Sequence record: LC739539.1
Source of the DNA: Escherichia phage phiWec190
DNA length: 64,000 bases
Strand: one strand, 5' to 3'
The translations under genes were made by a program, and so were the position numbers. A model generated the notes under the pieces. The model had not been told where the DNA came from. It searched no databases and worked only from the letters and a program-made list of their open reading frames with translations. Each line of letters starts with the position of its first letter. The stretch's first letter is position 1. Of this stretch, positions 8,355 to 16,675 are shown in pieces.

Positions 8355-8936
8355 TTAGCTCCTTGTCGGTGAGTAGAACTGATGTTCTTTATAACGATAC
8401 ACTAAGACCATATCTTTTGTCCAGTGTGCACGGGTTTTTACTTTCTTAAAAAATGTCGCACCTTTTGTCATGTCCTGGGCTTCTCTAAGTGTAGGGAAGT
8501 TTGTATCCAGGTATATAAGTCGTTTTGCGATAGCTTTAGCTTCTTTCCATCGCTCTGCTTCAGTAACGTTAAACTTCTTCCTGTAAGAGAATTGTCCCCG
8601 TTGGAAGAGAATATCTTTAATATTGTCAGGGAAGTAATCATCACCTTTCCTGTTCAATACTACGTTACCTACAGCATACATTCCACGTTTACCCTGATTA
8701 CGACTTTCAGCGTAAATTGCACAAGCTAAGAGATTTTCTTTAGTATCTTGCTTTGCACATTTGTGAACTACTTTAGCAGTCTTTACGTTTGCAGCTTCGG
8801 CGGTTGCCGTGACAGGTGTAAATGTAAAAGCAGTTAAGGATAGTAACGCAACTGTTACAAAGTTTTTTATCAGCAAATTTTGCCTCCTTTTGGGTGAATG
8901 AACTACCAGTATAACACATGAGAGGCGTTTTTGCAA
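8355..8936 (-). CDS. cell-wall hydrolase, SleB/CwlJ-like (Hydrolase_2-type), with hydrophobic N-terminus
   Basis: ACAIYAESRNQGKRGMYAVGNVVLNR resembles the SleB signature; hydrophobic VTVALLSLTAFTFTPVTATA segment; true start probably internal. Confidence 0.55.
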   Translation of the reverse strand: MQKRLSCVILVVHSPKRRQNLLIKNFVTVALLSLTAFTFTPVTATAEAANVKTAKVVHKCAKQDTKENLLACAIYAESRNQGKRGMYAVGNVVLNRKGDDYFPDNIKDILFQRGQFSYRKKFNVTEAERWKEAKAIAKRLIYLDTNFPTLREAQDMTKGATFFKKVKTRAHWTKDMVLVYRYKEHQFYSPTRS

Positions 8937-8973: not shown

Positions 8974-9576
8974 TTACGGGCAATCATACCATTCTTTCTG
9001 ACCACCGAAGGCCATAACCACATCACAGATATCCATACCTGCTTTACCAACACCGTAAGCTTTCAGTTTCCATTCACCGTCTTCACGAACCAAGGAAGCT
9101 ACGTGGCAGATCGTGTTACCAGCTACTTCAGGAGCCAGGAAGTCGAAGTCCAGGATCTCAACGTTACGCTCGGCATCAAAAATCTTCAGCATACCTTCAG
9201 TAGCATGGCCCAGACGTTTCTGGCCCGTTTCATCATCAATAGTCAGGACAAAAGCAATCTCTTCGGCTTTATCGGAGATCTTAGCTAAGGTTACATCAAT
9301 CTGTTCCATTTGACCAGTACCATCACGAACATCATCACCTGCGAATACAGAACGTTCTGGATCAAACTTGTTAGCATAACAAACCAGATGACGTGCAGAC
9401 AGCATTTCAGGGTTGCCAGAAGCGTTGTGTCGGCATACAAGTGCGCTTACATCCAAATCCAGTTTAGAGTTTGATTTCCAGGAGAACTCCAGACGCAGTT
9501 CTTTCAGTGCCGGAGCAACTTTCTTCAGGGAAATCTTGTCAGTGGAACCTTTTTTCAGGGAAATTTTATCGCTCAT
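8974..9576 (-). CDS. terD: TerD-domain protein
   Basis: 200 aa; duplicated N-terminal DKISLKK, DLDVSAL, GDDVRDGTG, GEWKLKAYGVG; matches TerD family layout. Confidence 0.85.
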   Translation of the reverse strand: MSDKISLKKGSTDKISLKKVAPALKELRLEFSWKSNSKLDLDVSALVCRHNASGNPEMLSARHLVCYANKFDPERSVFAGDDVRDGTGQMEQIDVTLAKISDKAEEIAFVLTIDDETGQKRLGHATEGMLKIFDAERNVEILDFDFLAPEVAGNTICHVASLVREDGEWKLKAYGVGKAGMDICDVVMAFGGQKEWYDCP

Positions 9577-9591
9577 TATATGTCTCCTCTA

Positions 9592-9873
9592 TTATTTAAG
9601 TTTAATTTCGTTAACTGTTAACTCTACCTGCACCAACTCTGCCGTATGGTGTATTGAACACAACATTGCATTGTAATTCATTTCTACCGCATTGTATGGG
9701 TGCTTGGTGTCTTCGTCTCGCCGCAATACCATATAAACGATGACTGCTTCTGGGTCAAGACCGTCTTCATCGTAGGCGCTTTTCAGAACAAACAAATCCC
9801 GATGTGTAAGATTTGCAATGCGACAAGTCTGAATCTCTGGTTTGCTATCTTTCTTAATAGCGAAATTTAACAT
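9592..9873 (-). CDS. hypothetical protein, paralog of 10895..11167
   Basis: Shares M.F.IK.DSKP and SAY(D/E)E(D/N)GLD with 10895..11167. Confidence 0.5.
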   Translation of the reverse strand: MLNFAIKKDSKPEIQTCRIANLTHRDLFVLKSAYDEDGLDPEAVIVYMVLRRDEDTKHPYNAVEMNYNAMLCSIHHTAELVQVELTVNEIKLK

Positions 9874-10096
9874 CTTGTCCTCCTGTCGTGATTTCTGGTT
9901 TGTTGATACGCATTATAACAGCTTTATTTGCTTTGTCAATCCATTCTTCATAAAAAGGATACTGATGGATCTCAACGCGTAGCTTGAGTTCTTCCAAAGA
10001 AAGAGTCCCAAAGTAATCTTTAAGACCCTTCATGATGAAAGCTTCTCTCTCGCGCATCACTTGTAACACCGTTTGAGAGATCAGCGTATCGATCAT
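9854..10096 (-). CDS. hypothetical protein (80 aa)
   Basis: ORF track; co-oriented. Confidence 0.4.
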   Translation of the reverse strand: MIDTLISQTVLQVMREREAFIMKGLKDYFGTLSLEELKLRVEIHQYPFYEEWIDKANKAVIMRINKPEITTGGQDVKFRY

Positions 10097-10893
10097 TTCT
10101 TAGCACCAACCTTTTCGACCCACTCACCGAACTCTTCAGACAAGAGTTTATCGTAAAGCTGCTCGTCTGTCAAGGAAAGATCGTTCAGACCAATGAATGC
10201 TACGTTGTCGTAAGCTTCAGCCAAATCTTTCAGGAAAGAGAAACGAGCACTACCAACACCCACCATGAACCAGTAGATAGGTTTACCCTTGTTCTTTTCC
10301 AGTACGGAGAGTACACGGCTCGGATCATCGTTCTCACCATCTGTCTGGAAGAACACAACTGCCGGAGTAACGTCTACACCAGGCACAGCAACGGCTACAG
10401 TTTTTTCTACAACAGCTTCTACAGTTTCAGTTTTACCCAACAGACGGTTGAAGAAACCTTTCTTAGGGATTTCTTTCGTTACTTGAGTTTCTACAGTTTC
10501 ATACTTGGTAGTGCTACCGAAGTAAGAATCGTAGATATCTTGCATAACAGGGGCGTAGCTTGTACCACCCTGAACTGTTACACGACCATTAATGCATTTA
10601 CCAACGTAATCATCATACACATCAGCAGTTGCCGGAGTGATTTCACGAGAGCTATTGTTGAAAGCCCACATATCGATCTGTGCATTATCGTCAAAGATCA
10701 TACCGAAGGGCAGCAGCTTACCTACGAAATCACTGACGGTGCCGTTACGATACAAGCTGGACATACTACCGGAGATATCCAGTGCGCTTGCAACACGCAG
10801 AACGATCTTTTGATCTTCGTTGACGATTTTCTTTTTCTTCAGTGAAATGGTCAGGGTGTCTTGGCGTTTCTTCAGGCTAATTTTATTGGACAT
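10093..10893 (-). CDS. von Willebrand factor A (vWA) domain protein with TerD-like ISLKK N-terminus
   Basis: 266 aa; LDISGSM (DxSxS MIDAS), TSYAPVM, FFQTDGENDD; N-terminal KISLKK...TISLKKK. Confidence 0.65.
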   Translation of the reverse strand: MSNKISLKKRQDTLTISLKKKKIVNEDQKIVLRVASALDISGSMSSLYRNGTVSDFVGKLLPFGMIFDDNAQIDMWAFNNSSREITPATADVYDDYVGKCINGRVTVQGGTSYAPVMQDIYDSYFGSTTKYETVETQVTKEIPKKGFFNRLLGKTETVEAVVEKTVAVAVPGVDVTPAVVFFQTDGENDDPSRVLSVLEKNKGKPIYWFMVGVGSARFSFLKDLAEAYDNVAFIGLNDLSLTDEQLYDKLLSEEFGEWVEKVGAKK

Positions 10894-10894
10894 A

Positions 10895-11167
10895 TTATTT
10901 CTCCTCTGTAAGTGTGATATCGGTAACTACTAAACGAACTGCAACCATCGGTACATCTGGGGATACGGTATGGACACTCCCTCTTGATGAACTATTCAAA
11001 CAAACAGCAGTCGCGCCGCCGCTTTTAATAAATACTAAGTTTGCAAACGTATCCAAACCATTTTCTTCATATGCTGAATAATACATGAAAGTTTCACCAA
11101 TCCCCAACTCTTCGAAACGAAGTGCTACATCTTGGGGTTTTGAATCTTTTATTTTAAAATCAAACAT
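10895..11167 (-). CDS. hypothetical protein, paralog of 9592..9873
   Basis: Shared N-terminal and SAYEENGLD motifs. Confidence 0.5.
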   Translation of the reverse strand: MFDFKIKDSKPQDVALRFEELGIGETFMYYSAYEENGLDTFANLVFIKSGGATAVCLNSSSRGSVHTVSPDVPMVAVRLVVTDITLTEEK

Positions 11168-11729
11168 TCCCTCCTCCTTTACCAGTTTTGAAGCCCAAAT
11201 CGTAAGCTTCTTTGATGATTTTTTGTAACTCGCTTGTAGGCAGTGTTACAAGAGGATCATCTTCTTCAATTCCCATTTTGTCGTCTTCTGTTTCAATGAG
11301 GACATTATGCACTTTATGATAAGGATTGTCAACACGTTTGAAAATATTATTTTCGGTACTGTAGAAATAATCCTCTTCTTCCTCTTCTTCTCCATCTCCC
11401 CAACCTTGATTAGGATCGTCCTCGGATCGCTTTGTAGGGACTTCTCCTGTAAAGTGTTCTGCTAAAACCATAGCAATACCGTCTCCACGGTTTACAGAGA
11501 ACATAAGATCACAAACGTCGCTCCAAGGCATAGTCCATTTAAAGCTTTCTCTGTTCCCGTGAGCATCCTGCTTACTGCTGAAGACACGTCCATAACTATC
11601 ATAGTTGCCATACATCTCTTCAATAACCTTCCCATCTTTCAACAGGAAAAGATAGCAAGGAGAACCATCGAAAGATGTGGAGAGGGCAGCTTTGCCCGAC
11701 TCCTTACACAGAAAACTAAAGCAACCCAT
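11160..11729 (-). CDS. hypothetical protein with poly-Glu tract
   Basis: 189 aa; GDGEEEEEEDYFY. Confidence 0.5.
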   Translation of the reverse strand: MGCFSFLCKESGKAALSTSFDGSPCYLFLLKDGKVIEEMYGNYDSYGRVFSSKQDAHGNRESFKWTMPWSDVCDLMFSVNRGDGIAMVLAEHFTGEVPTKRSEDDPNQGWGDGEEEEEEDYFYSTENNIFKRVDNPYHKVHNVLIETEDDKMGIEEDDPLVTLPTSELQKIIKEAYDLGFKTGKGGGNV

Positions 11730-12127
11730 TACAGACCTGCCTTAATATCATCAATGGCAAGAGTAGTCTCACTACACTCGTCATATTCTTTATGAAGACG
11801 CAGGAAGTCTTCTGGACCACTCCAATCATAGTTTTGAGTCTTCCACCCATCGATAAAAGCATCTTCCATGATGGTGATCAGTTCTTGTCGAGTTAATTGG
11901 ATAATATCAGGATTCTTAACAACCTCTACACGGAAACCTGGTTCTTCGTATTCTCCCAAGGTGATAATAGATACCAACTCATCAGATTCACAGAGATAAT
12001 AACCTTTAAGGAAGCAAGAACCATCCTCGTCTGTGATAACTTCGTAAATTTCACCGCTTGTGAGATTGATGAAAAGAGTCGGATCTGTTACCGTTAATTT
12101 CAAATGTACGTTTGTGTGGTTAATCAT
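11729..12127 (-). CDS. hypothetical protein (132 aa)
   Basis: ORF track. Confidence 0.5.
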   Translation of the reverse strand: MINHTNVHLKLTVTDPTLFINLTSGEIYEVITDEDGSCFLKGYYLCESDELVSIITLGEYEEPGFRVEVVKNPDIIQLTRQELITIMEDAFIDGWKTQNYDWSGPEDFLRLHKEYDECSETTLAIDDIKAGL

Positions 12128-12293
12128 CTTCTTCCTCCCCTAAAATATGGAACCCGTAATTACAATAATCCTGAAATGTTTCTTTTGCAAGATCTTCGAT
12201 ATCTTCTTGAGACATATCGTCTTCAATTTCGATATCCACAACCTCGGTACATCCAGCCCAGGCAGTTTCGATGTTCACACGCAATGTTTTCAT
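12120..12293 (-). CDS. small acidic hypothetical protein (57 aa, not in track)
   Basis: Hand-read ORF MKTLRVNIETAWAGCTEVVDIEIEDD... preceded by GGAGGAAG RBS; fills a gap in the gene string. Confidence 0.35.
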   Translation of the reverse strand: MKTLRVNIETAWAGCTEVVDIEIEDDMSQEDIEDLAKETFQDYCNYGFHILGEEEDD

Positions 12294-12484
12294 TCTTCCT
12301 CCTCATTAAATTCTACGTCTGAAAGAATCTCAAAACCAAAACTATTACAAGCTTCATAAGAATAATCTTTCCGTAAACTTGCTAAGACGCTTGGAGAATA
12401 TACGCTGCACATAGGTGCGAATCGACGTTCCTCGTCATAGCGTACACCAAAATAATCTTCAACTACATAGACACGGATTCTCAT
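12290..12484 (-). CDS. hypothetical protein (64 aa)
   Basis: ORF track. Confidence 0.4.
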   Translation of the reverse strand: MRIRVYVVEDYFGVRYDEERRFAPMCSVYSPSVLASLRKDYSYEACNSFGFEILSDVEFNEEEE

Positions 12485-13593
12485 TTACCAAGCCCCTTCT
12501 TAACAGCGTCAACCATCCCATCTTCGAGAGATTGAACTTCATTGATGTAATCAACACGGGCAGCACGGGCTTCCGTATTGATGCGGTTAGTTTCTTCCAA
12601 CATCTTAACCAAGTTTTCCTGATCGTGACGCAGGGTTTCAATATCCAGTACTTGGCGGTTAGCCAGTGCTGCTGCTTCGATCTGATTCTGTGTGGCAAGA
12701 TCGCTACCCAGTTTGATTGCCAGGTTGAACTCGTCCAGAACGTTGTTCTGTGTTTCTGCTGCTTTCTTCTGGCGCAGACTTTCAATATACATTGAGAAGT
12801 TTGCCGAGTAAGCAGGAATCACATTGTTCACAATATTACGAGCAGAACGCATGAGGCTGGCAGATACTTTCTGCATACCCAATACACGCGGTCCCATTTG
12901 CACGCACAGCAAGCGTAATGCCTTCAAGTCAGCAATACGTATCTCCAAGAGATCAAGCGTGTCACGGACGCGTTGACGGGCTTCTACGTCATCTTCTGGT
13001 GTGGCTTCAAAAGTAGCCAGTTCTTGCTCATAAGCTGCTGTGAGTAATTCCATATCACGATTCAGGCTTGCGGCGTACTGTCCGATCGCCTGGTGCAGCT
13101 TATCCAGGTACACCAGAGAATCTTCTTCTTTACGGATATCCATTTGAAGATTCTTAACGAGTTCTTCGATACGGTTGTTCACGTTATCGAACTCACCGAA
13201 GAGATCTTCTTTCATCCCCATCAGTTTCTTGATGAGTTTACCTACACCTTTACTCTGCTTAATGGAGGCAGGATCAAGCTGTTTGGCTTGTTTAATCAAA
13301 GCTGTAAGGCGTTGACTCATTTCGTCACCTTGATTGCTACGTTGGTGCTTCAGCACTTCAGCATTCAGAGAACGGAGAGTTAAACCTGCTTCTGCACCTA
13401 CTTCTTCAATCTCTTTACGAGACATTGTTGGCAGGGTAGGCACAGCTTTTGGCGCTGCTGGAGCATACACCGGACTTGCATCCAGGACACTCGGAGCGAA
13501 CACGGACTTGCTTGCGTCTGTAGTAGCAGTCAGTACACTCGTTTCAGATTTCTTTTGACCACCAGTTGCCGCTTTCAAAAATGGACTTGTCAT
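12481..13593 (-). CDS. telA: TelA-like (toxic anion resistance family) protein
   Basis: 370 aa, largely helical, in Ter-type context; assignment by family resemblance, needs HMM confirmation. Confidence 0.55.
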   Translation of the reverse strand: MTSPFLKAATGGQKKSETSVLTATTDASKSVFAPSVLDASPVYAPAAPKAVPTLPTMSRKEIEEVGAEAGLTLRSLNAEVLKHQRSNQGDEMSQRLTALIKQAKQLDPASIKQSKGVGKLIKKLMGMKEDLFGEFDNVNNRIEELVKNLQMDIRKEEDSLVYLDKLHQAIGQYAASLNRDMELLTAAYEQELATFEATPEDDVEARQRVRDTLDLLEIRIADLKALRLLCVQMGPRVLGMQKVSASLMRSARNIVNNVIPAYSANFSMYIESLRQKKAAETQNNVLDEFNLAIKLGSDLATQNQIEAAALANRQVLDIETLRHDQENLVKMLEETNRINTEARAARVDYINEVQSLEDGMVDAVKKGLGK

Positions 13594-14180
13594 TCTTCAT
13601 TCTCCTCTTCTATTTCTCTTGTGTAAGGTGAAACACCATATTCTTTAGCTACTTTAACCCAATCTTCCCATTTATACAACCATATTTTTCCTTCTGTCCC
13701 CTCTTTATCACTCTTCAACCAAATATGTGGTTGTTTCCCTGGGGTCATACGGTTAGGTTTACGATTATACCCTCTAACACATCTTGTGGCAAATCTGTCT
13801 ACCAAAACAAGAACATATTTGTATTCATGATTGAACGGTTCTTTGGAAGTAGCTTTAGGATTGGCTCCCAACTCTGCTGCCAGTTTTTGCCAGTGTGGTC
13901 CATGACGACTGAACTTACCCATACAACCATCAATAGCATGAGCAATTTCATGCTTCATTGTGTCCACTATCATATCCCTTGTGGAGTTTTTATGCAAGTG
14001 CCAATTCACAACAACAATCTTTTCTCGGTAGTTGCACCAACCGAAAGAGTTATTCACTTTGTTCCTAACGCAAGCCGTATATCCAGCTTCACGTAGCATG
14101 TTGTAGTAAACAGGGAAATCCTCCTTGATCTCCTGCATCACTTCCCACCACAAGAGTTTTAAATCTCTCTCGGTATTCAT
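13590..14180 (-). CDS. SprT-like zinc metallopeptidase
   Basis: 196 aa; HEIAHAIDGCMGKFSRHGPHWQKLAAELG (HExxH plus HG..W...ELG). Confidence 0.55.
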   Translation of the reverse strand: MNTERDLKLLWWEVMQEIKEDFPVYYNMLREAGYTACVRNKVNNSFGWCNYREKIVVVNWHLHKNSTRDMIVDTMKHEIAHAIDGCMGKFSRHGPHWQKLAAELGANPKATSKEPFNHEYKYVLVLVDRFATRCVRGYNRKPNRMTPGKQPHIWLKSDKEGTEGKIWLYKWEDWVKVAKEYGVSPYTREIEEENEE

Positions 14181-14183
14181 GCA

Positions 14184-15050
14184 TTACACCTTGAAGTTAA
14201 AGCTTGTTGTGGTAGTTTCGAAATCTGGTGCTGTCAAGTGTGCACTGAAATCAGAGATTTGGTTAATAATGAAACTCTTATGTACACCTAAAACAACAAC
14301 ACTTTTAATATCTTCTACAGACATTTCCCACATATTGGAAAAACGGATAAAAGTTTCTCCTTCTTCTGCAACTGTGAAGAACATAAGGTTTCCGCCAGCA
14401 GTGTAACCCACTTCTTTAAAACCTTTGATCGTATATTGCTCACCGCTGGTAAAGAAAACTGTCGCCTTATTTACGGTGCGCTTACGTTCTGGAATACCTT
14501 TGGCACGTTTACCTTTAACCTTTTTAACTTTGGCTACAGGTTCTTCTTTCTTCTTTTTCTGTTCAGCTACGGCATACATTACGCTCATGAAATCTTTAGG
14601 AGATAACAGGAGATAATCCTGCTCTTCTGTCAATTCAGAAACATCATAGTTTACAGCATCCACATAATCGGAAAAACCATGACTTTTCTCTGCTACAAAG
14701 TGAGGGAAATTATCCCCTGCGAAAAGGTTAGATCTCTTTACATCCACATAAGTATCTGCCATAAAAGCAGAGAACCCTTCAAACAAAGGAGATTTTTTAA
14801 GATCGTCAATATTTACCGCAATCTTATACTCGTCTGCCAACGGGCGGAAAGGTTGCTGGAAGCAGCTACGCATCTCTGCATACTGAAGAACTCCGTTAGT
14901 AATACCTTCGAAAACAATTTCATTACATTCTTCTCTTATTTCTTTCACTCGGAAGACGTTCTTGTTAACTTCTAATGCTTCTGGGGAATAACCCGTACCA
15001 GATAAGAAATACAAATCCCCAACTACAGGTAATGGCTGAATATTTTTCAT
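14184..15050 (-). CDS. hypothetical protein (288 aa) with Lys-rich linker
   Basis: ORF track; KKKKEEPVAKVKKVKGKRAKG segment. Confidence 0.5.
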   Translation of the reverse strand: MKNIQPLPVVGDLYFLSGTGYSPEALEVNKNVFRVKEIREECNEIVFEGITNGVLQYAEMRSCFQQPFRPLADEYKIAVNIDDLKKSPLFEGFSAFMADTYVDVKRSNLFAGDNFPHFVAEKSHGFSDYVDAVNYDVSELTEEQDYLLLSPKDFMSVMYAVAEQKKKKEEPVAKVKKVKGKRAKGIPERKRTVNKATVFFTSGEQYTIKGFKEVGYTAGGNLMFFTVAEEGETFIRFSNMWEMSVEDIKSVVVLGVHKSFIINQISDFSAHLTAPDFETTTTSFNFKV

Positions 15051-15059
15051 ATTTTCTCC

Positions 15060-15302
15060 TCATCTTAAGTTATTAAGTAGTGACCACCAATCAAAATCTT
15101 CTCTTGACTTCTGGTGTGGAGTTTCTTCTTTCTGCATATTAACACAGGTGTGTTTGAAATCTCCAGAGAAGCAGTAAATCTGCTCCCCGTCTTTGTATAG
15201 GGATACTTTACTACCATTGATCACGTTTGTCAACACAAAAAGTATGACGAACAAACCTATTGCAAAACAAATATTTTCAAACACAACCCAAACAACTTTC
15301 AT
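15060..15302 (-). CDS. small membrane protein
   Basis: 80 aa; N-terminal hydrophobic helix. Confidence 0.4.
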   Translation of the reverse strand: MKVVWVVFENICFAIGLFVILFVLTNVINGSKVSLYKDGEQIYCFSGDFKHTCVNMQKEETPHQKSREDFDWWSLLNNLR

Positions 15303-15652
15303 TACAGAAATACCTCATCATCTGTCTCATTATCCCAGAAGAATAAATCCCAAGTGTCAGAGTTATCCCATTTAGCGTAAGGAGAGGTCCAGAAGCCATA
15401 CACCTTAATTTCTGTAATAATATCATCGACATTTGCACTTGCTGCTTGTAGTTCGTAACGCAGAACTGGGGTGACTGTACCCTCACCTGAACCACAACAA
15501 GCTTCAACATTAGGTGGAAGATCCATAGGAGGTGTCTGTTTAACTTCTACATAAGCATAAGGAAAAACCTCTTGAATCGCAGCTTCTACCTCTTGGATTG
15601 TGCCAGAAAGACACCAAACATATTCCTGAACATCATCAAAATATACAGACAT
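15302..15652 (-). CDS. hypothetical protein (116 aa)
   Basis: ORF track. Confidence 0.45.
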   Translation of the reverse strand: MSVYFDDVQEYVWCLSGTIQEVEAAIQEVFPYAYVEVKQTPPMDLPPNVEACCGSGEGTVTPVLRYELQAASANVDDIITEIKVYGFWTSPYAKWDNSDTWDLFFWDNETDDEVFL

Positions 15653-15700
15653 AATTCCTCCTATATTAGTAAGAAACCTCCCGAAGGAGGTTCATTGGTA

Positions 15701-16675
15701 TTAAGCGGTAGCTTCTTCTTTTTCAGGGAAGATGAAACTTGCAATCACGCCCAGGGCCAGAGTACCAAGCACGATATACATGCTGATCGTCGGGTCAATA
15801 TGCGCTGGCAGGAAGCTCACTTTTGCGTGCAGCGTTTCTGCAAACGGGTGATACATCAGTTTCACACCAACAAACACCAGGACTGCGATAACTGCTTTCT
15901 CCAGGTGAACCAGATACTTCAGGGCCACACTAAGAACAAAGAACAGAGCACGTAAGCCTAAGATTGCACAGAGCATCGAAGAGAATACAAGCAGTGGTTC
16001 TTGTGTCACTGCAATTACAGCCGGAACCGAGTCTACTGCAAAGATCACATCTACCATTTCCATCACGAACACACAAACCAGAGCCGGAGTTGCTACACGA
16101 ACACCATTCTTAATCGTGAAGAACTTCTCACCATCCATCTGATCCGATACTGGGAACAGTTTACGAACGACGCGGGTAGCCCAATGTTTAGAGTAATCAA
16201 CTGCTGCGTCATCGTCTTGTTTAAACAACATCTTCGCCGCACAAAAAAGAATCACAATACCGAAGAAAATATTAACATACCATCCAATACTTAGCAGATA
16301 AGTCCCTGCTGCTACAAACACACCTCGGAAGACAATCGCACCTGCAATACCCCAGAGTAGAATTTTGTGTTGTAAGTGTGTGCTCTTAATCCCGAAACTG
16401 GAGAACACTGCTACAAACACTACCAAGTTATCTACCGAGAGCGACTTCTCTAACACATACCCGCTCAAGAACAAGTTTGCAAAATCTGCGCCGTGCTGGA
16501 AGTATACAAAACCATAGTAGGCTAAAGACACACCAATCCAGAAGATTGACCAAGCCACAGCAGATTTGAAAGAGATTTCCTTGTTCTCACGATGCCCGAA
16601 AAAGTCAATACCGATGGACAGAACAAGAATACCTACCAACACCACTACATCAATAATGGGGAAACCAAGTTGCAT
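15701..16675 (-). CDS. terC: TerC-family integral membrane protein
   Basis: 324 aa, multi-pass; LSVDNLVVF and AVDSVPAV signature motifs. Confidence 0.85.
   Translation of the reverse strand: MQLGFPIIDVVVLVGILVLSIGIDFFGHRENKEISFKSAVAWSIFWIGVSLAYYGFVYFQHGADFANLFLSGYVLEKSLSVDNLVVFVAVFSSFGIKSTHLQHKILLWGIAGAIVFRGVFVAAGTYLLSIGWYVNIFFGIVILFCAAKMLFKQDDDAAVDYSKHWATRVVRKLFPVSDQMDGEKFFTIKNGVRVATPALVCVFVMEMVDVIFAVDSVPAVIAVTQEPLLVFSSMLCAILGLRALFFVLSVALKYLVHLEKAVIAVLVFVGVKLMYHPFAETLHAKVSFLPAHIDPTISMYIVLGTLALGVIASFIFPEKEEATA

Follow-up and report, generated by a model that had tools for sequence, protein, structure and literature searches.

We analysed a stretch of 64,000 nucleotides (nt) from Escherichia phage phiWec190 (LC739539.1; hereafter the window) in which two small open reading frames (ORFs), small A and small B, stand upstream of the genes for a vWA-TerF-like protein and a TerD-domain protein, respectively, within a phage Ter module. 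A preliminary description of this DNA had read the arrangement as an ancestral tandem duplication of a small-partner plus TerD-like pair, one copy of which then acquired or retained a vWA domain. Comparison of gene order across related phages shows instead that the small gene alone, and not a two-gene unit, was duplicated or relocated while vWA and TerD kept their arrangement, and family-wide alignment shows that the doubled ISLKK segment found at the start of both larger proteins is an ancient signature of TerD N-termini and of the pre-domain segment of vWA-TerF-like proteins. The best joint explanation, which we hold to be moderately probable, is that the small gene was duplicated on its own in a phage Ter module and that the small proteins work with the vWA and TerD proteins as accessory or adaptor subunits.

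All four ORFs were recovered where they had been described, on the minus strand (Table 1), and the proposed paralogy of the two small ORFs held up: BLASTP aligned them over their full length with 31 of 95 positions identical (33%, E=1e-9), and the shared motifs that had been quoted for them are present (MFDFKIKDSKP and MLNFAIKKDSKP; SAYEENGLD and SAYDEDGLD). Both proteins match phrog_11278 (small A, residues 1-90 on 1-92 of 92, E=1.3e-28; small B, residues 1-93 on 1-89 of 92, E=7.4e-15), and they were the only matches when a hidden Markov model of the family was run on the six-frame translation of the 64-kb window. Relative to small A (isoelectric point, pI, 4.6), small B (pI 5.5) carries a 7-residue insertion in one loop. 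Core sequence motifs and acidic character are conserved across the small family, with all 35 members examined being acidic (pI 4.3-5.5, net charge -2 to -11). Scanned in full with HMMER, a set of 1.84 billion representative proteins yielded 19 matches, namely 16 stand-alone proteins of 87-93 amino acids (aa), two fragments of 54-55 aa and one spurious match; P0139 (1191 aa, eight matched stretches) is an FN3-repeat protein whose score was inflated by its repeats, and it was rejected as a family member. A k-mer-indexed homology search started from small A alone returned one near-identical protein only, and the wider family members came from the alignment-based search and the full HMMER scan. 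As far as genomic context shows, phrog_11278 is a small family confined to phages. The small proteins and two neighbouring ORFs of 80 and 189 aa had no match in Pfam, NCBIfam or PADLOC.

An AlphaFold2 model of the small protein, built from a 20-sequence alignment, had a mean predicted local distance difference test (pLDDT) score of 86 and a predicted template modelling score of 0.76 and comprised a five-stranded barrel with one short helix; the fold predicted for the family is an SH3-like beta-barrel. Searched against viral models with Foldseek, this prediction matched the phAPEC8 paralogue and, apart from that, only small phage proteins without annotation. We also considered whether Firmicute vWA-TerF-like proteins carry a fused small homologue in their N-terminal extension of ~60 aa and rejected this (hhalign probability 0.35%).

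The evidence on descent comes from the placement of the small gene in different phages (loci are numbered L001 onwards; L001 is phAPEC8 and L002 is VEcB). The order is small-vWA-TerD in Justusliebigvirus VEcB, Klebsiella phage 05F01 and L012/L013, and vWA-small-TerD in L008, L014 and L017, with L011 showing small-TerD only (its contig begins just upstream of the small gene). The window, phAPEC8 and L018 share the order small-vWA-80aa-small-TerD; L015 has vWA-small-small-TerD, both small proteins being family members (E=5e-17 and 9e-27); and L004, L005/L006 and L007 have TelA-vWA-(unrelated ORF or TerC)-TerD with no family member at all. The slot directly upstream of TerD is used in all divergent lineages (L008, L011, L014, L015 and L017), and the slot upstream of vWA is seen only in Stephanstirmvirinae-type phages. 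In the phage database, ~126 records carry an A-type match, and 71 of these carry a B-type copy as well. What differs between these phages is how many small genes there are and where they stand, against an unchanging vWA-TerD frame; it was therefore the small gene alone that was duplicated or moved.

Several further candidates for related genes were tried at these loci. The 55-69-aa ORFs between vWA and TerD of L004 and L006 were rejected as degenerate family members, being unrelated to them, and the 80-aa ORF is likewise unrelated to the small family; nor did it show any similarity to the 189-aa protein, and a larger duplicated block spanning the two was rejected. Loci L009 and L010 (from P0129 and P0130) contained neither a family member nor a Ter gene and were rejected, and single-protein locus scans with P0131 and P0135 found nothing. 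In L015, a metagenomic phage contig, two divergent small genes of 90 and 87 aa stand in tandem at 1180-1725 and are ~34% identical; this looks like an independent or older duplication of the small gene.

That the vWA and TerD proteins both begin with a doubled ISLKK is correct, and the N-terminal likeness on which the preliminary description relied holds over a short stretch: the two N-termini (MSNKISLKKRQDTLTISLKK and MSDKISLKKGSTDKISLKK, respectively) match at 14 of 20 positions (E=0.007 as a single comparison), and beyond residue 20 there is no similarity between the two proteins. The pattern [IV]SL[KR]K occurs five times in the six frames of the window, four of these occurrences being the two N-termini. 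We collected 106 homologues of the vWA protein, 74 of them from outside the close phage group, and counted hydrophobic-x-hydrophobic-x-K/R motifs in the 42 residues before the strand that carries the metal ion-dependent adhesion site (MIDAS), a segment defined in this analysis and not by Pfam. Of the 74 distant homologues, 72 had at least two motifs; the 42-aa segments held 2.86 on average, against 0.064 in equal-length control windows of the same proteins; the window vWA protein has two copies 11 residues apart, and its L7, K9 and L18 are conserved at 90% or more in a 63-sequence alignment. The motif-bearing distant homologues include Firmicute proteins (Paenibacillus, Paraclostridium) and the L021 protein, which is encoded inside a classical bacterial Ter biosynthetic operon together with a C-C lyase, a phosphoribosyltransferase (PRTase), an ATP-grasp protein of the Ter-operon type (Pfam ATPgrasp_Ter), a HAD protein and TerD. 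In the true TerD+vWA fusions P0121, P0122 and P0124, the repeated motif lies between the two domains. Since it is found in the Firmicute proteins, in the L021 operon protein and in these TerF fusions, the ISLKK motif must predate the phage locus. On the TerD side, the doubled ISLKK falls within the TerD domain model, whose profile is matched from position 3.

The spacing of the two motif copies is 11 residues in the vWA protein of 12 of 12 genomes and 8-10 residues in TerD (10 in 9 of 12), and in bacterial vWA proteins it is mostly 7, 11 or 13-14 residues, a helix-like periodicity. The serine codons of the ISLKK copies in the two window genes differ (AGC vs. TCC). Some vWA pre-domain segments contain a TerD-like K-x-AP-x-L (e.g. 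KEAPQL in P0119 and P0121), and a very old TerD origin of the vWA pre-domain segment is possible, as is convergence of the two motifs. The N-terminal motifs of vWA and TerD also co-vary: across the window, L001-L008, L012, L014, L015 and L018, mean identity was 10.2/14 within the same genome vs. 9.2/14 across genomes, a value that none of 20,000 permutations reached. KISLKK, for example, occurs in both proteins of the window, KLSLKK in both of L015 and INL[TS]K in both of L007. This co-variation favours some shared constraint on the two N-terminal segments.

The vWA protein itself scores 129.4 bits against PF10138 (curated cut-off 29.4) and has a complete MIDAS (D39-x-S41-x-S43, T111 and D185), which is invariant in the 63-sequence alignment. 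Its AlphaFold2 model adopts a vWA fold (pLDDT 92.8), and Foldseek matched this model to vWA/MIDAS domains including that of the copine BON1. The protein had no TerD match in Pfam at E≤0.1 and has only ~30 residues before the vWA domain, so it is not TerF proper. In the same model, a long beta-hairpin arm (residues 127-171) is inserted in the domain and bears at its tip a short helix, GFFNRLLGK; bacterial vWA homologues have a similar peptide (MGFFGFGNK, MGFFKKLFGGKK) at the extreme N-terminus instead, and the GFFNRLLGK-type peptide may be a relocated membrane-targeting or interaction peptide. The TerD protein scores 102.8 bits against PF02342 (cut-off 25.3; residues 5-180 on profile positions 3-178 of 187) and matches the structures 3IBZ (E=3e-14) and 2KXT (E=5e-14), the alignment starting with ISLKKG opposite VSLSKG of 3IBZ. 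By homology to 2KXT, the ISLKK-G-x3-ISLKK segment of TerD would be expected to form beta-strands, where the vWA segment is predicted as a helix. Over the Ca2+-loop region (GDN-x-TG-x-G-x-GDDE type), its aGDDVR-DGTGQMEQI pairs with tGDNITgEGEGDDEQI of 3IBZ, several acidic residues being kept and others replaced.

Each small gene does lie directly upstream of its ISLKK protein, as had been described, small A ending 1 nt before the vWA ATG and small B 15 nt before the TerD ATG, and each of the four genes has its own strong Shine-Dalgarno sequence. That of the vWA gene is formed by the last small A codons, GAG GAG AAA TAA. The A-position small proteins all end in x-E-K (window 10895-10903), and this conservation may reflect a constraint at the RNA level, because the codons double as the vWA Shine-Dalgarno sequence. 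Upstream of small B, the perfect sigma-70 match listed in Table 1 is the only one in the 64-kb window (0.04 expected); it is kept at the homologous place in phAPEC8 (L001 5232-5259), L018 and L019, and transcription of small B and TerD as a unit likely starts from it. In VEcB, where small B is absent, the vWA-TerD spacer holds a 10/12 promoter site. The second site, called by consensus match only, has its pattern matched exactly at the homologous position in phAPEC8 (L001 3836-3864) and VEcB (L002 3827-3855), and small A and vWA may be transcribed as a unit from it. Because a conserved promoter-like site precedes each of them, the small-plus-large pairs may be separate transcription units, and the earlier idea of a two-gene unit thus survives in part at the level of expression and fails at the level of descent.

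Every small-family member with readable context adjoins a TerD gene, a vWA gene or both, and this makes a partner role plausible; the small proteins are probably module-specific accessory subunits. Each would be made together with its downstream neighbour, given the tight spacing, the separate Shine-Dalgarno sequences and the conserved promoter-like site of each pair, and each would be specialised for that neighbour. They could then bind, or help to assemble, vWA and TerD in a membrane-associated Ter complex, a candidate contact being that between the acidic small proteins and the strongly basic, lysine-rich N-terminal tags of vWA and TerD. Following the proposals published in one account of phage Ter modules (PMC7824862), such a complex would act in superinfection exclusion or would confer tolerance of stress while infection proceeds.

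Several observations nonetheless weigh against the accessory-subunit explanation or limit what may be concluded from it. L004, L006 and L007 lack the small family, yet they retain vWA and TerD as well as the N-terminal motif, which co-varies between the two proteins there too; therefore the motif is independent of the small proteins and the small proteins are dispensable for the core module. In the AlphaFold2 model of the vWA protein, residues 7-20, which hold the doubled ISLKK segment, form a confident helix (pLDDT 82-95) packed on the domain, and the segment is not obviously a free peptide. Closely spaced genes are usual in phages and are weak evidence for partnership. The succession of duplication and loss events is uncertain because the gene tree is poorly supported at depth: in a neighbour-joining tree, the window-type B clade had moderate support (203/300 bootstraps), and the A-position clade, which bears on a single origin of those copies, was recovered in 41/300.

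We weighed these results against other explanations. Under the original pair-duplication proposal, the ISLKK leader would be the remnant of a duplicated TerD-like partner, and the paralogy of the small genes, the 14/20 match of the two N-termini, the possibility that each pair is its own transcription unit, and the KEAPQL-type resemblance of some vWA pre-domain segments to the TerD N-terminus beyond the motif itself would all fit such a history. The same motif, however, is found in nearly all of the distant vWA-TerF-like proteins, among them bacterial proteins that lack a small gene, and it lies between the two domains in the TerF fusions; its spacing differs consistently between vWA and TerD, its serine codons differ, the similarity ends at residue 20, and there are relatives in which a single small gene stands beside both vWA and TerD, or in which there is none. 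The family-wide motif, the variable small gene and the mere ~20 shared residues largely refute the pair duplication, and we regard it as extremely improbable. The small ORFs might otherwise be ordinary phage filler genes that adjoin vWA and TerD only through gene order inherited within one lineage, and the confinement of the family to one group of related phages, the occupation of the same slot by unrelated small ORFs (55-80 aa) in other lineages and the three phages that lack the family altogether point in this direction. Yet the small gene has undergone at least one duplication, and probably further ones or a relocation as well, with every copy adjoining vWA or TerD; this adjacency extends to relatives with no more than 42-44% identity in TerD, and the core motifs and acidity are conserved, all of which leaves the filler explanation unlikely.

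A regulatory role, in which the small proteins would use an SH3/KOW/L2-like fold to bind nucleic acid and control the translation or transcription of the downstream gene, seems to us very improbable. We give similarly little credence to their acting on the host as anti-defence factors, whether on host TerD/vWA proteins or on other targets. Small acidic phage proteins are often inhibitors, which would suit a host target; on the other hand, many hosts of these phages (e.g. E. coli K-12) are not known to carry a ter operon. A further point in favour of a host target is the inhibition of phages by bacterial and plasmid Ter systems, for which PMC8386662 and PMC7824862 give citations, but the strict linkage of the small genes to the phage's own vWA and TerD genes and the lack of matches in PADLOC or other databases speak against it. 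A more elaborate version of the accessory-subunit explanation would make the repeated segment of TerD and vWA a dedicated assembly or recognition tag, co-evolving between the two proteins of each genome, and the small proteins lineage-specific tag-binding adaptors or chaperones, one each for vWA and TerD, which would control the building of a TelA/TerC-associated sub-membrane Ter complex early in infection, driven by the perfect sigma-70 promoter of small B-TerD; we consider this distinctly unlikely.

The window comes from a ~150-kb phAPEC8-like myovirus of the Stephanstirmvirinae, and its region is common to ~130 related phage records; the 2.9 kb tested were 100% identical to Escherichia phage phiWec188 (LC739537.1). 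Host labels among the near-identical or close genomes are in some cases at odds with this: those of Pseudomonas phage PsgM04F (94% identity), Acinetobacter phage ABPW7 and Campylobacter phages A150 and A110a look doubtful because the genomes are phAPEC8-like coliphages. The minus strand carries every gene from 5.4 to 16.7 kb of the window, in the order of transcription TerC, SprT-like, TelA, short acidic ORFs, the 189-aa protein, small A, vWA-TerF-like, the 80-aa ORF, small B, TerD and a cell-wall hydrolase (Table 1).

Table 1. Features of the Ter module and its surroundings in the window, in order of transcription.
Feature	Coordinates	Strand	Evidence and remarks
TerC-family integral membrane protein, 324 aa	15701..16675	-	Pfam PF03741 E=1.7e-39; phrog_7180; upstream member of Ter module
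TelA-like protein, 370 aa	12481..13593	-	Pfam PF05816 E=1.1e-34; phrog_5890 'tellurite resistance' E=6.6e-133
Conserved protein of unknown function, 189 aa	11160..11729	-	phrog_14928 E=5e-107; kept in phAPEC8 and VEcB
Sigma-70-like match, TTGACA-17-CATAAT, 11/12	11304..11332	-	Inside 189-aa gene, ~137 nt upstream of small A
Small A, 90 aa	10895..11167	-	phrog_11278
vWA-TerF-like protein, 266 aa	10093..10893	-	Pfam PF10138 E=2.5e-37
ORF of unknown function, 80 aa	9854..10096	-	phrog_22387; 59% identical to phAPEC8 gp064
Perfect sigma-70 consensus promoter, extended -10 (TTGACA-16-TG-TATAAT)	9912..9939	-	Inside 80-aa ORF, 39 nt upstream of small B ATG
Small B, 93 aa	9592..9873	-	phrog_11278; paralogue of small A
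TerD-domain protein, 200 aa	8974..9576	-	Pfam PF02342 E=2.1e-29
Cell-wall hydrolase (endolysin-like)	8355..8936	-	Pfam PF07486 E=4.6e-17

In every related phage locus TelA precedes the vWA gene, immediately in L004, L005 and L007 and separated from it by a few short ORFs in the others. Between TelA and the 189-aa gene of the window, very short and highly acidic ORFs (57-132 aa) fill 12120-12484 and 11729-12127; they are kept in phAPEC8 and L018, and one has a weak DUF7167 match. The 189-aa protein had no credible Pfam match, and the 3' end of its gene overlaps the start of small A by 8 nt. The 80-aa ORF between the vWA gene and small B, not mentioned in the preliminary description, was seen only in phages that also carry small B. 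Downstream of TerD, the cell-wall hydrolase is the neighbour in L001-L004, L006, L008, L012, L015 and L018 (with one ORF between in L006).

Bacteria, plasmids and phages commonly carry Ter systems, yet little is understood of their mechanism, including the way in which TerD, TerF-type vWA, TelA and TerC assemble. A compact phage version with small accessory proteins is possibly a tractable experimental route to the architecture of the complex, and the co-varying N-terminal segment of TerD and vWA is another possible route. The practical result of the present analysis is a correction, in that the ISLKK leader is a family signature and not evidence for a local pair duplication.

Anantharaman, Iyer and Aravind reportedly described Ter in 2012 as a stress-response and defence system whose features include co-located TerC, TerD, TelA and vWA together with genes for the biosynthesis of a nucleoside-like metabolite. 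TerC, TerD, TelA and vWA are co-located here, all on the minus strand within 8974-16675. Among the ORFs examined from 5.4 to 16.7 kb there were no PRTase, ATP-grasp, HAD or TerB biosynthesis genes, which the bacterial L021 locus has, and none of eight cluster proteins matched PADLOC-DB v2 at E≤0.01. Bacterial TerF (of terZABCDEF) is a TerD domain fused to a C-terminal vWA domain (PF10138); the window vWA protein shares the PF10138 domain and the repeated pre-domain segment with it but has no TerD domain, TerD being encoded separately, two genes downstream. Copines/BONZAI proteins, in turn, combine C2 domains with a vWA domain, and homologues of the window vWA protein carry weak matches to the Copine family (PF07002), with BON1 being one of many vWA domains matched by the AlphaFold2 model. 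A copine-like pairing of a calcium-binding beta-sandwich with a vWA domain would be analogous at most, since TerD forms a polypeptide of its own and its sequence does not make it a C2 domain, and the likeness is structural only. For small A and small B, with their predicted barrel, FeoA and the C-terminal domain of DtxR/IdeR are small SH3-like barrel proteins that may be set beside them.

The closest comparison is with other phages. Abbreviated phage Ter modules of TerC, TelA, TerF-type vWA and TerD are known in jumbo and other tailed phages (Iyer et al., 2021; PMC7824862), where they have been proposed to be anti-superinfection or xenobiotic-tolerance devices, and a similar gene set has been described in Klebsiella phage phiKp34 (PMC8386662). 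The window has the same four core families in one co-oriented cluster, with a TerF-like vWA gene adjoining TerD. Those two accounts name four core gene families, and the small protein is not mentioned in what they say of the gene set; the small family was likewise absent from all the distant phage and bacterial Ter loci that we examined. Phages of the window type thus differ from the published phage Ter modules in carrying, in addition, one or two copies of a small acidic protein of phrog_11278 with a predicted SH3-like fold. We conclude that the module is of a known kind, and that, judged by the sequences compared here, its only element not already described would be the small phage-restricted, Ter-linked family, to which the co-varying N-terminal segment of TerD and vWA may be added as a second new feature.

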